Shown: one piece after another, positions 3,646 through 41,826 of the stretch
Layout: every line of letters starts with the position of its first letter
Numbering within the stretch: the first letter of the stretch is position 1
Notes under the pieces: generated by a model
Told to the model about the DNA's origin: nothing
Database searches by the model: none
The model's input: only the letters and a program-made list of their open reading frames with translations
UHGV virus genome: UHGV-0201915
Source of the DNA: a virus
Length of the DNA: 44,587 nt
Reading direction: 5' to 3' (one strand)
Translations under genes and position numbers: made by a program

Positions 3646-3662
3646 TTTCGGAAAAAACGAAA
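3646..3662. promoter_or_regulatory. Operator O1 (TTTCG-N7-CGAAA palindrome)
   Basis: Sequence TTTCGGAAAAAACGAAA in the cI/cro intergenic region, adjacent to the cI RBS. Confidence 0.6.
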
Positions 3663-3722
3663 TACATTTCTTGAATTACATTTACAATTATTTAAAATGC
3701 GGTCATATAGAAATAAAAATAA

Positions 3723-3739
3723 TTTCGGAAAAAACGAAA
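3723..3739. promoter_or_regulatory. Operator O2 (TTTCG-N7-CGAAA palindrome)
   Basis: Exact second copy of the O1 17-mer. Confidence 0.6.
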
Positions 3740-3747
3740 TAAAACTC

Positions 3748-3776
3748 TTGACTTCGGAAAAACCGAAATGTATACT
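3748..3776 (+). promoter_or_regulatory. PR early lytic promoter: -35 TTGACT, 17-nt spacer, -10 TATACT
   Basis: Consensus-like sigma-A promoter. Its spacer is operator O3. The GAGGTGA RBS and the cro ATG (3809) follow. Confidence 0.7.
3753..3767. promoter_or_regulatory. Operator O3 (TTCGG-N5-CCGAA palindrome) inside the PR spacer
   Basis: TTCGGAAAAACCGAA lies between the -35 and -10 of PR. Confidence 0.6.
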
Positions 3777-3808
3777 TAAATCAGAGTTAAGAAACGAGGT
3801 GACACAAA

Positions 3809-4051
3809 ATGGAAAATAAAAAAGAAAAGTACACTCTCAAACAACTGCGCGGTTTAAACGGTTTAACAAAAGAAGAACTTGCCAAAAAAAGTGAAGTTAC
3901 TTCTCGAACTATTTATATCTACGAAACAGATGTTAAAAAAATGAGAAATGGCAAATACGTAACGTTAGAAAAAATTGCTAAAGCGTTAGGCGTTAGAGTT
4001 GGAGATATTTTTTTAGATCCCGATTCGGAAAAACCGAAACAAATCAGTTAA
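3809..4051 (+). CDS. Cro-like XRE-family HTH regulator
   Basis: 80 aa, transcribed divergently from the repressor. The HTH reads LTKEELAKKSEVTSRTIYIYE. Confidence 0.8.
   Translation: MENKKEKYTLKQLRGLNGLTKEELAKKSEVTSRTIYIYETDVKKMRNGKYVTLEKIAKALGVRVGDIFLDPDSEKPKQIS
4024..4038. promoter_or_regulatory. Operator O4 (TTCGG-N5-CCGAA) inside the 3' end of cro, upstream of the antirepressor gene
   Basis: TTCGGAAAAACCGAA is identical to the O3 core and lies 32 bp before the antirepressor start. Confidence 0.5.
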
Positions 4052-4069
4052 GTTTAGGAGGAAACGTAA

Positions 4070-18135: not shown

Positions 18136-18648
18136 TTGGGAGGAAACGATTTGGAAATTCAAGTACATGAACTGTCAGAATCGCAGTTAAATGAATTATC
18201 GGATATGATTGTTGCAAAAATGATGAAGTCGCAAGAATCAAAAAGAAAACAAATAAGATCAAATGCCTATCATAATACTATGATGCTGTTAAGAAATTAC
18301 AAGAAATTGAAAGCTCACTGTCAAATTGTAGAAGCAGAAGTTGAAGAAGAATTTGGTACGATGTGGAACGAATGGAGATTCGATATTGATAGTTTACTTG
18401 AACATAAAGCTAAAACCGCAAAGCTAATGAAACACGTAGATTTCGCGTTAAGAGAGTTCAAGAAAGATCAGCCAGAAGATTATGATTTAATCAATATGAA
18501 ATACCTTCTTCCAAGGTGTTTCTCAGATGAGTTTATTGCTGGACAGAAGAATATTGATCGTACAACCGTCGGTAGGAGAATTAAAAAAGCCTCGGAAGAA
18601 TTAGCAATAATTCTTTTTGGGATTGATGTTGTAATTGATTGGTTCTAA
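18136..18648 (+). CDS. arpU: ArpU-like late-gene transcriptional regulator (sigma region-4-like C-terminus)
   Basis: About 165 aa. The C-terminus has an HTH-like segment (DRTTVGRRIKKASEELAII). It sits immediately upstream of the packaging genes, where Firmicutes phages carry ArpU/RinA-type activators. The true start may be the TTG at 18151. Confidence 0.5.
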   Translation: MGGNDLEIQVHELSESQLNELSDMIVAKMMKSQESKRKQIRSNAYHNTMMLLRNYKKLKAHCQIVEAEVEEEFGTMWNEWRFDIDSLLEHKAKTAKLMKHVDFALREFKKDQPEDYDLINMKYLLPRCFSDEFIAGQKNIDRTTVGRRIKKASEELAIILFGIDVVIDWF

Positions 18649-18904
18649 TGCACATTTTGTGCACCACAATGCAACATTAAAAGTGTTACTATGATAGCGT
18701 GAAATAAATGTGATTAATCCGCCAAGCAGACGACTCAAACTTAACTTTATTGGCATGAAGTTTCTCCTTATACCTCTTAACATATATACGTCTAGCTTGG
18801 TGGGTTATTCTCTTTTTGACTACACTGCCACTTTGCGGAAACAGAGTAGGCAAACAATTGGCGGCATGAAATAATGATTTCTACATTGAGCGTGCCGTCT
18901 TTAT

Positions 18905-19027
18905 GTCACTGTGGCGGAATAGGTAGACGCTTATAGGAAAGATAAGGTTTTTGCGTTGCAGGCAACGGCTTCGTTGTGGGCGCTCTTACGAATAAAACCA
19001 TGCAAGGTGCAAATCCTTGCCAGTGGC
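18905..19027 (+). ncRNA. tRNA-like structured element 1 (Leu/Ser-type D-arm and T-arm flanking an ~70-nt insert); not a canonical tRNA
   Basis: GTGGCGGAATAGGTAGACGC is a type-II tRNA D-arm consensus. CAAGG-TGCAAAT-CCTTG is a T-arm-like stem-loop. The termini GTCACTG/CAGTGGC can pair as an acceptor stem. The spacing is incompatible with a standard cloverleaf. Confidence 0.25.
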
Positions 19028-19140
19028 TTAGAGATTGAGCAATAAGCATGAGGCAATCAGACCACTGAATTATCCCAGGTCTTTTGCTGGATAAACAATC
19101 TCAATTACAAGCAAGCTTGCAGGAGGTAGCTCCTCCGAGT

Positions 19141-19216
19141 TGACGTGAAGCATCATTGGTGATGCGTCTGACTGTTTTGGTTGGAAATGAGGTCGGTTCG
19201 AATCCGGCCACGTCAA
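19141..19216 (+). tRNA. tRNA-like element 2 (76 nt): perfect 7-bp acceptor, D-arm and canonical T-arm; non-canonical anticodon arm (possible UUU anticodon)
   Basis: Acceptor TGACGTG/CACGTCA. D-arm GCAT-CATTGGT-GATGC. T-arm GTCGG-TTCGAAT-CCGGC with the GGTTCGAATCC consensus. The anticodon region CTGAC-TGTTTTG-GTTGG needs G.U pairs and an extra nucleotide. Confidence 0.4.
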
Positions 19217-19295
19217 TAGCAACCGAGGATATAAGTGGTACGTGGAGGAACAGCACGATGACGGTGCTATGTAGGTTGCACAAATACATAATCAA

Positions 19296-19322
19296 GATCG
19301 CTTCGGCGGTCTTTTTTATTTT
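19296..19322 (+). terminator. Intrinsic terminator ending the structured-RNA locus
   Basis: GATCGC-TTCG-GCGGTC stem-loop with a tetraloop, followed by TTTTTTATTTT. Confidence 0.7.
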
Positions 19323-19538
19323 GGATACAAAAATAGACCACTACCGGGTAATAGTGGTCAGGAATTAAATGAAAAAGATGTTAAAGGGTTGTTAGACAAG
19401 TATAACATCATAGCGTTTACATAGCAATACAAAAAAGAGCCACTGTTTCCGCAGCGATCTATCTGTGAAACGTAAACAATTTATACATAAAGCATACAAT
19501 AATAACGCTTACATTGCAACGCAGAAAGGGATAGAGCA

Positions 19539-19763
19539 ATGAGAACTTACTGGTACGTGTCATTAAACAATAAATACCCGCTGCCAATGAAAGGACAGCA
19601 TAAACGTGTAGTGATGTCTGTTCAAATGAAGGCGAAGTATTCAATTGTAGAAATGACCAGGGAAGCGACGCCAGTAGAGATTGATCATTGCAAGCTAGTT
19701 TATTGTGGGTATGGGCTTTGGAAAGAGGATCATGTACAAGAGAACATCAGAAAATACATATAG
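19539..19763 (+). CDS. Small hypothetical protein upstream of terS
   Basis: 74 aa. AAGGGA RBS 8 nt before the ATG. Confidence 0.35.
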   Translation: MRTYWYVSLNNKYPLPMKGQHKRVVMSVQMKAKYSIVEMTREATPVEIDHCKLVYCGYGLWKEDHVQENIRKYI

Positions 19764-19781
19764 AAAGGTGGTGGAGCTAGT

Positions 19782-20621
19782 GTGGAAAAATGGGAGTTAG
19801 CCTATAAGGACAGACAACAAGGCATGAAGTATAAAGAGATTGCTGAAAAGTACGGCGTGTCAATTAACACTGTCAAAGCGTGGAAGTCGAGGAAGTGGAA
19901 CAAACAAGACAAAGCTAGTAATCCACCATCTAAGAAGGTTGCACACAAAAAAGGAAAAGGTTGCACACAAAAAAAGTTGCAACCTGTGATAGATAATGAC
20001 GAACTGACGGAACAACAAAAAATGTTCTGTCTTTTTTATTTGCAACACTTTAATGCTACGAAAGCATATCAGCAAGCTTACGAAGTGGATTATAAGACAG
20101 CTAACGTAAATGGTAGCAGACTGCTAGTAAATGCTAGTGTTAAGAATGAACTACACAAATTAAAATCAGAACTTCAACAGGACAACTTTGTTACAACGAA
20201 GGATTTGATTAAGGAGTATATAAAACAAGCCTTTTCTGATATTACGGATTTTACTGAGTTCGGGAGTCAAACAAGAGTTGAAACAGAGTTAGACGAGAAT
20301 ATGAAACCAACACCAGTGTTAGATCCAGAGACAGGTGAGCCAATAACTTATTTAACTACATTTGTCGCTTTGAAGAATTCCGAAGACGTTGATGGAACAC
20401 TTATCCAAGAAGTTAAAAAAGGTAAGGACGGCGTTTCAGTTAAGTTGTATGACAAGCAAAAAGCAATGAGTGAATTAATGAAGTATCTTGGCGGTGATGC
20501 GTTGAGAGAGGCTCAGTTGTCGAAGTTAACTGGGAATGATGGGGCTACTAATGATCAAGAAAATTGGAAAAAGGCAGTTATTGAAGCAGCGAACAAGCGA
20601 GCGGTGATTGATGATGGATAA
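19782..20621 (+). CDS. terS: Terminase small subunit with N-terminal HTH
   Basis: GTG start after an AAAGGTGGTGGAG RBS. The central region (LTEQQKMFCLFYLQHFNATKAYQQAYEVDYKTANVNGSRLL) matches the terminase small-subunit (Terminase_2-like) pattern. Confidence 0.8.
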   Translation: MEKWELAYKDRQQGMKYKEIAEKYGVSINTVKAWKSRKWNKQDKASNPPSKKVAHKKGKGCTQKKLQPVIDNDELTEQQKMFCLFYLQHFNATKAYQQAYEVDYKTANVNGSRLLVNASVKNELHKLKSELQQDNFVTTKDLIKEYIKQAFSDITDFTEFGSQTRVETELDENMKPTPVLDPETGEPITYLTTFVALKNSEDVDGTLIQEVKKGKDGVSVKLYDKQKAMSELMKYLGGDALREAQLSKLTGNDGATNDQENWKKAVIEAANKRAVIDDG

Positions 20622-41754: not shown

Positions 41755-41826
41755 GTACCCTTAGTTCAATTGGTAGAATACTCCGGTTCATATCGGAAGA
41801 TGCGGGTTTGAGGCCTGCGGGGTACG
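41755..41826 (+). tRNA. tRNA-like remnant (72 nt): good acceptor, D- and T-arms; defective 8-nt anticodon loop (TTCATAT, CAT-like)
   Basis: Acceptor GTACCCT/GGGGTAC, D-arm GTTC-AATTGGTA-GAAT, T-arm GCGGG-TTTGAGG-CCTGC. The anticodon stem CTCCG/CGGAA has a mismatch and an 8-nt loop. No CCA follows. Possible pseudo-tRNA or att-site tRNA fragment. Confidence 0.3.

Follow-up and report, generated by a model that had tools for sequence, protein, structure and literature searches.

Phage transfer RNA (tRNA) genes have so far been explained as codon-usage helpers or as replacements and decoys for tRNAs that host immunity destroys. The anticodon or variable loop is where tRNA-targeting defenses cut, and phage tRNAs act against these systems as a "decoy or supplement" (PMC13096335). 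For Septu and retron-Eco7 (PtuAB) the cut falls in the variable loop of class II tRNA-Tyr, and the anti-defense tRNAs described include the T5 tRNA-Tyr (against retron-Eco7) and the T6 tRNA-Tyr (against Septu); PrrC, PARIS, and OLD likewise target tRNAs, and homing endonucleases cluster with phage tRNAs (PMC13096335). The locus described here lies between an ArpU-like regulator gene and terS in the virus genome UHGV-0201915, whose whole analyzed stretch of 44,587 nucleotides (nt) is called the window. It is very probably an autonomous phage accessory gene that specifies a modular structured RNA of ~420-440 nt (~18882-19322, + strand) and belongs to a large family in Enterococcus prophages. As in phage tRNA islands, its two tRNA-shaped domains, elements A and B, trace back to phage genes for tRNA-Leu and tRNA-Lys, and relatives include an intact tRNA-Lys(UUU) at B, tandem A units, and one inserted homing endonuclease. 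In contrast to phage tRNAs, A and the window copy of B have no anticodon loop able to decode, cannot supplement translation, and are fused with a linker, a hairpin, and a third domain (module C) in one terminator-closed unit. A family of this kind must do something other than decode.

Modules and scaffolds that resemble tRNAs are known from the MALAT1 mascRNA, from the tRNA-like domain of transfer-messenger RNA (tmRNA), and from engineered scaffolds that carry inserts in the anticodon arm. The window RNA resembles mascRNA and the tRNA scaffolds in having an acceptor/T-arm minihelix with a foreign or expanded insert at the anticodon or variable arm, and in its expected handling by ribonuclease (RNase) P, RNase Z, and the CCA-adding enzyme; it differs from the scaffolds in that it occurs naturally, as a phage family, and has a partner domain of its own, module C. 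No tmRNA was called by ARAGORN or Rfam, and a tag reading frame is absent. Enzymes that process or modify tRNAs accept the bacterial Y RNA YrlA as a substrate. Like A and B, YrlA is a non-decoding mimic of the tRNA body with an acceptor-like stem, a D-arm, and a T-arm, but its tRNA-like module is closed at the acceptor end and sits on a Ro60-binding helix, with its gene beside rsr (PMC4201824), whereas the acceptor ends of the window RNA are open. Y RNA or YrlA was not among the Rfam matches at E up to 10 (the holdings of Rfam 15 for such families were not checked), and no Ro60 (rsr) gene was noticed in the open reading frames (ORFs) examined, the flanks being the ArpU-like regulator, phrog_1202, and terS (the rest of the prophage was not screened). 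In prophages, ROOL and GOLLD RNAs are located within arrays of tRNA genes, and GOLLD sometimes has tRNAs embedded in it (PMC12286853, PMC5737381, PMC12990946); Cousin et al. 2017 report nothing on the prophage context. Both are, like the window RNA, phage-borne, associated with tRNA genes, and modular, and in one relative a ROOL (RF03087) occupies the same slot with the same leader and terminator. They differ in that no similarity is detectable with Rfam, the minimal A-C form of the family is much smaller, and the conserved parts of A-C are tRNA-derived, a feature unreported for ROOL or GOLLD.

The RNA family is apparently undescribed. Rfam 15, applied at the gathering score to the whole window and at E up to 10 to 18600-19800, gave only the tRNA family for B and chance-level small RNA (sRNA) matches; ROOL, GOLLD, tmRNA, ribozymes, and introns were all absent at E up to 10 from 18600-19800, and no family in Rfam 15 matches A, C, or the whole unit. 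The deposited genomes of two related phages, EH-TP1 and EG-TP1, have no feature annotated at the unit, and a literature search, outside which most subscription journals lay, found neither the conserved sequence nor such an element described. An earlier reading of the letters alone (the sequence-only reading) had proposed an Rfam/Infernal check of the locus, which returned a tRNA for B above the gathering threshold and neither a tmRNA nor an intron.

The + strand is the RNA strand, given the G-U pairs, the orientation of the tRNA-like domains, and the terminator. Its parts are as follows.

18847-18875, + strand: promoter-like site TAGGCA-17-AATAAT with a TG extension, from a consensus scan
18860-18899, + strand: leader stem GGCGGCA...UGCCGUC around a small hairpin, then UUUAU, read from alignments
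18905-19028, + strand: element A, a class II, tRNA-Leu-derived, tRNA-shaped domain, from model R1 and pair counts
19029-19121, + strand: linker module, from the alignment of 18 cassettes
19122-19136, + strand: hairpin GGAGG-UAGCU-CCUCC directly 5' of element B, near-invariant in 18 distinct cassettes
19140-19217, + strand: element B, a tRNA-Lys(UUU)-derived tRNA-like domain, from ARAGORN, Rfam tRNA, and the minimum-energy fold
19219-19280, + strand: module C, a conserved 3' domain (GCAACCGAG...GTAGGTTGC here; GCAACCGAG...GUAGGUUGC in aligned cassettes)
19284-19322, + strand: junction ATACATAATCAA, then an intrinsic terminator, from a terminator scan

The 18 distinct window-type cassettes align as a stem-closed string in this order, from the leader stem through A, linker, hairpin, B, C, and junction to the terminator. 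A, B, and C behave alike: closing helices are conserved, and interiors are swapped, expanded, or deleted. Relatives were retrieved by two routes, 80 loci through the neighboring phrog_1202 protein, which is independent of the RNA, and further ones through conserved RNA motifs, a route that inflates the apparent conservation of those motifs. The regular expression for the ends of A left the T stem unconstrained and allowed a mismatch at acceptor pairs 3, 4, 5, and 7; two of the loci that it retrieved (L108 and L113) are chance matches. More than 100 distinct relatives lie in Enterococcus prophages, the 5' strand of A is present in more than 120 viral contigs, and four hosts are given in the records: Enterococcus hailinensis, Enterococcus sp. 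AZ128, E. hirae (EH-TP1), and E. gallinarum (EG-TP1).

The unit is under selection for tRNA-like pairing, and the evidence that its features are not due to chance comes from comparison with relatives rather than from single-sequence folding energy. A covariance model of A (R1), built from 15 relatives with the window excluded, has its sole match in the 44.6-kb window at 18905-19029 (60.4 bits, E 5e-16). With filters off, the large inserts divide this match in two. Among relatives R1 gave 37 + 61 matches and detected A, at E down to 1e-30, in phages whose hosts include E. hirae, E. gallinarum, and other members of Enterococcus. Across 35 distinct end combinations, the acceptor and T stems of A are 98.0% paired (30-48% in shifted controls), with four of six T-stem pairs changed on both sides, and the whole fold of the 90-nt form is 95.9% paired. 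In a 45-sequence alignment, which was fitted to the model and is biased towards its structure, 93.7% of cells pair, and both partners vary in 15 of the 26 pairs; at acceptor pair 4, 23 versions have A-U and 17 have G-C. For B, the cloverleaf pairing of 17 variants is 90.9%, against 28-45% in shifted controls. Covariation in homologues, which the sequence-only reading had named as a test of its tRNA-like structures, is strong.

In the window copy of A, a 7-bp acceptor stem (18905-18911 with 19021-19027) joins a class II D-arm (18914-18930; GTGGCGGAATAGGTAGACGC) and a T-arm hairpin (19002-19020) in one tRNA-shaped domain. The domain contains an anticodon-arm remnant with a 7-nt loop (CUUAU-AGGAAAG-AUAAG, 18930-18946) and an expanded variable arm (18946-18999, 54 nt in the window); the discriminator is U (19028), and CCA is not encoded. 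The D-arm, the T-arm-like hairpin, and an insert of ~70 nt had been recognized from the letters alone, but the acceptor stem that closes them into one domain had been overlooked. A is not a canonical tRNA: ARAGORN and Rfam give no tRNA for it in the window, and none of 56 family versions is called as one by ARAGORN. Lengths among relatives run from 51 to 250 nt. The commonest form, of 90 nt, has a class II tRNA shape. Its acceptor has 7 bp and its D stem 3 bp; U8 is present, as are A14 and G18G19 in the D-loop. The short "anticodon" arm ends in a UGCG, UGUG, or CGCG tetraloop and the variable arm in UUCG (UNCG-type caps), the T stem has 6 bp and a UUCGAUU-type loop, and the discriminator is U, again without an encoded CCA. 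Real tRNA-Leu(UAG) genes with the acceptor of A (GUCGCUG/CAGCGAC) and its D-arm occur in eight unrelated viral contigs (L345, L347, L354, L361, L392, L396, L402, and L425; GTCGCTGTGGCGGAATTGGTAGACGC...CAGCGACA), and A is therefore a tRNA-Leu derivative. R1 ranks these genes lowest (37-44 bits), and by sequence they are the likely ancestral lineage of A.

Tandem copies of A-type domains were also observed. Two paralogous domains follow one another in L043:876-1172, L056:4630-4926, L069:3282-3599, and L100:920-1206. One class has a GGGUAGA D-loop and a UUCGAUU T-loop, the other has GUAGAAGA and a UGCAAUC or GGCGGUG T-loop, and the D-loop and T-loop types switch in concert.

For element B, ARAGORN calls a tRNA-Lys(ttt) at 19140-19217 with an abnormally placed anticodon (position 36), and a local Rfam search gives the tRNA family (RF00005) at 19141-19216 with 31.8 bits (gathering 29, E 1.9e-4); B is absent from the whole-window Rfam listing at default filters. 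The cloverleaf has a perfect 7-bp acceptor (UGACGUG/CACGUCA, extendable to 8), a D-arm (19150-19165) for which 6 bp with a 4-nt loop is possible, a T-arm of the GTTCRANYC type (19191-19209, GGTTCGAATCC), and a discriminator A, with CCA not encoded. The sequence-only reading had described this element as 76 nt long (19141-19216), with a perfect acceptor stem, a D-arm, a T-arm, and a non-canonical anticodon arm, and all of these stand. The arm (19167-19185) has 19 nt in place of the usual 17, and its minimum-energy fold has 7 bp and a 5-nt loop, GUUUU; no canonical arm (5 bp, 7-nt loop, U33, purine 37) is found, and a 7-nt reading, UGUUUUG, gives G33 and U37. The link to Lys(UUU) that had been suggested for the element also holds, since a canonical CUUUUAA anticodon loop is kept on the acceptor/T-arm scaffold of B in L012 (61 bits), L047 (47.6 bits), L098, L126, and EH-TP1; B is therefore tRNA-Lys(UUU)-derived. 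The complete anticodon stem-loop of tRNA-Lys(UUU) is intact in L012, L098, L126, and EH-TP1 and is not intact in the window.

A derived form of B is shared by the window and eight relatives (L013, L015, L025, L048, L092, L095, L096, and L103). Its anticodon arm, UCUGACU-GUUAG/GUCAG/GUUUU-RGUUGGA, has a 7-bp stem and a 5-nt loop, and ARAGORN labels the copies Lys(ttt), Stop(tta), or SeC(tca). All eight stem substitutions within this group (8/8) keep pairing, which by chance has a probability of at most about 0.004 if all are transitions and half are pair-breaking; the derived form is therefore maintained and is not decaying. Other copies of B have an Ile-like loop with C37 (L009, L100, and L104), lack the anticodon arm (L093 and L105), have lost the 5' half-arm (L003), or persist as a 40-nt stub (L001 and L109).

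Among 63 distinct A-containing units, A is directly joined to C in 15, B lies between A and C in 25, other modules lie between them in 15, and no C is found within 1.5 kb in 8. A and C are thus the core of the family, and B and the other modules are optional inserts. The minimal form comprises A, a 3-nt U-rich spacer, C, and the terminator and measures ~170-190 nt from A to C. It is still located between the ArpU-like regulator and phrog_1202/HNH/terS, and in minimal-form loci the gene upstream of it is transcribed divergently, which leaves the unit on its own. Within one other insert (in L159), bounded by the closing pair AGUAGCUUGCAC...GUGCAAGUUACU, lie two hairpins that resemble T-arms, GUAGAGUUCAAAUCUCUA and GUUGGUUCAAUUCCAAC; this insert looks from its sequence like a further tRNA-fragment-like module.

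The RNA is non-decoding: the tRNA body is kept, and a usable anticodon has been lost. In this respect the tRNA mimic that the sequence-only reading had named as one possibility is supported. Because selection keeps the tRNA body and not decoding, the RNA is expected to be read by proteins that recognize the acceptor, the T-arm, or the elbow. RNase P would cut at 18905 and 19141, and RNase Z would cut after the discriminators, at 19028 and 19216/19217, the latter cuts being predicted because CCA is not encoded and the trailers are U/A-rich; the CCA-adding enzyme could then act. The products would be stable tRNA-like A and B, a linker piece, and a fragment of C with the terminator. Processing of this kind is somewhat more probable than its absence. 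Expressed beside the late genes, the non-decoding mimics would act as harmless competitors or sponges for host effectors of tRNA-targeting defense, and the loops that such effectors normally cut are capped or closed in A and in window B. The capped or closed loops are also the most variable parts of the two elements. A tRNA mimic that serves as a decoy against tRNA-targeting defenses is plausible by analogy with published systems (PMC13096335), and for this RNA a decoy role is a tentative proposal drawn from its architecture. The specific version put forward from the letters alone, a Lys(UUU) decoy or replacement against PrrC/RloC-type nucleases, does not fit the window copy: window B lacks an intact anticodon stem-loop and is neither a decoder nor a normal loop substrate, and the idea is further weakened by the optional status of B. 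The best overall explanation, held at about even confidence, is that the locus is a gene for a tRNA-shaped, non-decoding RNA that is processed and acts as a decoy for defenses.

A bolder form of this explanation, which is rather doubtful, would make the A-C RNAs (with B optional) a new class of phage anti-defense RNA, in which cleavage-resistant mimics, with stable hairpins capping their anticodon and variable arms, bind and titrate effectors without disturbing translation. The targets would be variable-loop nucleases of the PtuAB/Septu type, anticodon nucleases, or toxins that modify the acceptor end. If this were true, the hypervariable arms would record an arms race, and the shared slot would hint at a part for ROOL in this same conflict between host and phage. 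Small and numerous RNAs (more than 100 variants) in a tractable pathogen genus are well suited to experiments on tRNA mimicry in such conflicts.

Several points weigh against the decoy explanation. Module C is the most widespread part of the unit and has no role in a decoy model. The repeated independent truncations of B in relatives may mean that B is dispensable. The conservation of the acceptor and T-arm could partly reflect recombination anchors between mosaic modules, or partly the retrieval by motif. The folding energy of A alone is unremarkable (z = -0.8) and was not used as evidence. The promoter call is a consensus match only, and a sigma-70-like promoter searched for on the + strand of the minimal-form loci was not found. 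We know of no tRNA-targeting defense in these hosts.

The prominence of C is one argument for a different account, less probable than the decoy explanation, in which the tRNA domains are a processing and stability scaffold for a riboregulator: they would be RNase P and RNase Z punctuation, and the product would be C with the terminator, in the manner of an sRNA from the 3' external transcribed spacer (3'ETS) of a tRNA, or the displayed inserts. The tRNA-linked sRNA 3'ETS-leuZ and the tRNA-like processing signal of MALAT1 mascRNA are precedents. C is the best conserved module as well as the most widespread, it directly follows A and the 3-nt spacer in 15 units, and the interiors of A and C are hypervariable within fixed closing stems. 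At least 39 distinct versions of C, found in bona fide cassettes, share the closing stem GCAACC/GGUUGC, the conserved junction nucleotides GAGG and (G)UGUAG, and a variable, purine-rich interior that contains GUGG and finishes in a hairpin. In EH-TP1 and L196 the closing stem covaries from C-G to U-A, and although the search pattern permitted all four combinations at this pair, true cassettes show only the two that pair. No known motif was found to fit C: K-turn, loop-E, and readings like the hepatitis delta virus (HDV) ribozyme were tried by eye against the conserved nucleotides. A metagenome scan with the C pattern gave mostly chance matches on high-GC or unrelated contigs. Against the scaffold account, complementarity of the modules to the phage's own transcripts is no more than chance, and in Enterococcus we know of no Hfq-type pathway for such sRNAs. 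It also leaves the conservation of the full D-arm and elbow unexplained, since a minihelix would suffice for processing.

A second, improbable account regards the RNA as an analogue of ROOL and GOLLD, a modular "ornate" RNA that assembles as RNA only or forms a particle related to tRNA metabolism, with tRNA-like domains built in. In L002 (IMGVR_UViG_2606217798_000001), a full-length ROOL RNA (RF03087, 252 bits, 846-1434) replaces the body from A to C in exactly the ArpU-to-terS slot and is bounded by the upstream block, leader stem, and terminator of the window. This gives a comparative handle on ROOL/GOLLD function, since the ROOL of a sister phage lies in the same expression cassette. The prophage tRNA-array setting of ROOL and GOLLD and the tRNAs embedded in GOLLD (PMC12286853, PMC12990946) fit this account, as does the modular, stem-closed layout of the window RNA, whose self-complementary linker palindrome GCAAGCUUGC and hairpin loop UAGCU could kiss. 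The linker has a long-range stem of GAGAUUG (19031-19037) with CAAUCUC (19096-19102), an internal hairpin, and this 10-nt palindrome at 19111-19120; at least three linker types are interchangeable, and this is one of them. By eye, a palindrome 5' of the GGAGG/CCUCC hairpin is kept while its sequence differs by linker type (GCAAGCUUGC, AGCAUGCU, or AGCAUAUGUU), and in EH-TP1 the hairpin is GGAGG/CCUCU, with the pair retained as G-U. From their sequence, the palindrome and the AGCU within the loop could be candidate sites of intermolecular pairing. No sequence or structure similarity to ROOL or GOLLD is found with Rfam at E up to 10, however, and minimal members of ~170-190 nt from A to C are far below the size of ROOL.

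The slot is, moreover, a cargo hot spot, and the presence of ROOL in it may reflect that alone. An rli28 RNA occupies it in L024:3338-3517 and also in L011, L035, L049, and L058, where its product is a small hydrophobic peptide, MSVYQALSLMIAFATLVLLITDHKNKK, preceded by extended -10 promoters of its own; the rli28 module looks from its sequence like a type I toxin-antitoxin module. Further loci add small ORFs to the slot, and in L047:2868-3377 (and also in L141) a 169-aa HNH_3 homing-endonuclease ORF is inserted in the cassette, where it takes the place of the interior and 3' half of A and of the linker. The ROOL and rli28 loci contain no element A that R1 detects. The leader stem and the cassette end (junction and terminator) are common to the ROOL and rli28 relatives (e.g., L002 and L024 for the cassette end).

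The elements could also be decaying Leu and Lys genes of a phage tRNA island that are now functionless, which is quite unlikely. B is optional and has been truncated or replaced independently several times, no version of A is a decodable tRNA, and the content of the locus is highly mosaic; yet the stems covary with substitutions that preserve pairing, including all of those in the derived B group, A is found across phages of Enterococcus hosts with conserved D-loop and T-loop core nucleotides, and the loops have been exchanged for stable tetraloop caps and not eroded.

Slightly less probable again is a cis-acting leader of the late operon, in which the terminator controls read-through into phrog_1202, terS, and terL. 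Its position and orientation between an ArpU-like late regulator and the packaging genes, with a strong terminator ahead of the late genes, would suit such a leader. The minimal-form unit nevertheless follows a divergent gene and stands alone, the pair of A-type domains in L056 lies downstream of the phrog_1202 gene, a ROOL or toxin-like module can replace the cassette, and a tRNA-derived architecture is without precedent as an attenuator here.

An unusual decoder, with B as a Lys, ochre, or opal suppressor-type tRNA, a tRNA with tRNA-Sec-like geometry, or a replacement tRNA-Lys against anticodon nucleases, is very improbable. In its favor, ARAGORN labels relatives as "Stop(tta)" and "SeC(tca)", the would-be anticodon differs among three loop variants (UUU/UUA/UCA), the acceptor can extend to 8 bp and the D stem to 6 bp with a 4-nt loop, and some relatives have an intact tRNA-Lys(UUU). 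Against it, the arm has 19 nt with a best fold of 7 bp and a 5-nt loop, G33 stands where U33 is near-universal, the long variable arm of tRNA-Sec is absent, window B scores 31.8 bits against 61 for an intact relative, and the late genes of the tta and tca loci (terS, terL, and portal, which are intact long ORFs there as in the window) lack the in-frame stops that the suppressor tRNA of a recoded phage would read. In phage annotation, these elements are misleadingly called "tRNA-Stop", "tRNA-SeC", or "tRNA-Lys".

The window is a complete temperate Enterococcus phage, with an integrase at ~710-1846 and a lysin end at ~41433. The features that flank the RNA are listed below.

18136-18648: ArpU-like regulator gene (phrog_1558/phrog_36)
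18719-18803, + strand: upstream block with a long-range inverted repeat, CCGCCAAGC-AGACG ... CGTCT-AGCTTGGTGG, 90-99% identical in many loci
19336-19359, - strand: hairpin, an intrinsic terminator of the minus strand with 10 pairs, then TATTTTTG on that strand
19539-19763, + strand: protein gene of 74 aa (phrog_1202, full length, E 3e-39), function not assigned
19782-20621: terS (Terminase_2), with terL next

A terminator-closed, non-coding locus at the entrance of the packaging/late module, as the sequence-only reading had placed it, is borne out by these neighbors. Its statement that the gap holds no convincing ORF is wrong for 19539-19763, a gene that lies within that gap yet outside the RNA locus and has 180 relatives in IMG/VR; the non-coding part is therefore 18649-19538. 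Protein coding was also considered for the remaining small ORFs of the gap and rejected, as none has credible PHROG family support. The promoter-like site predicts a transcription start at ~18882, ~22 nt 5' of element A, and its sequence is kept in window-type relatives. The pairing of the leader stem survives sequence change (GACGGCAU/AUGCCGUC in L015, by alignment reading without a formal pair count).

At the 3' end, a GC-rich stem-loop with a U-run, the form of an intrinsic terminator, occupies 19294-19322 (stem 19294-19313, 8 pairs, loop UUCG, T-run TTTTTTATTTT; fold z = -5.1), in agreement with the strong terminator claimed earlier. A second hairpin, noted earlier near 19334-19360, is indeed present at 19336-19359 but reads as a terminator of the minus strand; its orientation is convergent with that of the plus-strand terminator, and it is probably not part of the tRNA-like RNA. 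The block 19311-19455, which contains the convergent terminators, is 97-99% conserved in several loci. A promoter-like site on the minus strand (19427-19399, TTGCTA-17-TATACT, TG) would give a predicted RNA of ~60 nt that ends at the 19359-19336 hairpin, and the block may be a candidate gene for a small antisense RNA or sRNA.

The upstream block at 18719-18803, with its 14-bp long-range inverted repeat, is common to relatives regardless of downstream cargo, including the ROOL-bearing L002, and may be a promoter/regulatory region or part of the leader. On the minus strand of this region, a strong ribosome-binding site and ATG (AAGGAGAAACTTCATG) start an ORF of 51 aa that matched no protein family and overlaps the regulator gene at its end. 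Two identical 18-nt copies of AAGGTTGCACACAAAAAA, 22 nt apart, form a direct repeat within the 5' portion of terS (19935-19974). Both this repeat and the 3' end of module C (19273-19282) contain AGGTTGCACA, and the repeat may be pac-related or a coincidence.

Two other candidates were rejected. The A inserts of L009 and L012 contain CUGAUGAG, considered as a hammerhead, and Rfam gives no match on those loci; an antisense role towards the phage's own transcripts was set aside, as the longest complementarity is 10-12 nt, no better than in shuffles.

Just past the lysin, close to the right end of the prophage, is another abnormal tRNA-like gene (41755-41826, + strand). It scores 34.6 bits against Rfam tRNA, ARAGORN reports "tRNA-???" with a 2-nt anticodon (ca), and its 6-nt anticodon loop (UUCAUA) resembles the tRNA-Met (CAU) loop minus one base. 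Direct repeats of at least 15 nt that would join the prophage ends, as expected of an attachment (att) site in a tRNA, were looked for and none was found, nor any that links 41755-41826 to the left end. Between divergent leftward and rightward early genes, four TTCGGAAAAAACGAAA-type repeats (3646-4054), each with a 16-nt core of inverted symmetry, are probably operator sites of the lysogeny switch.

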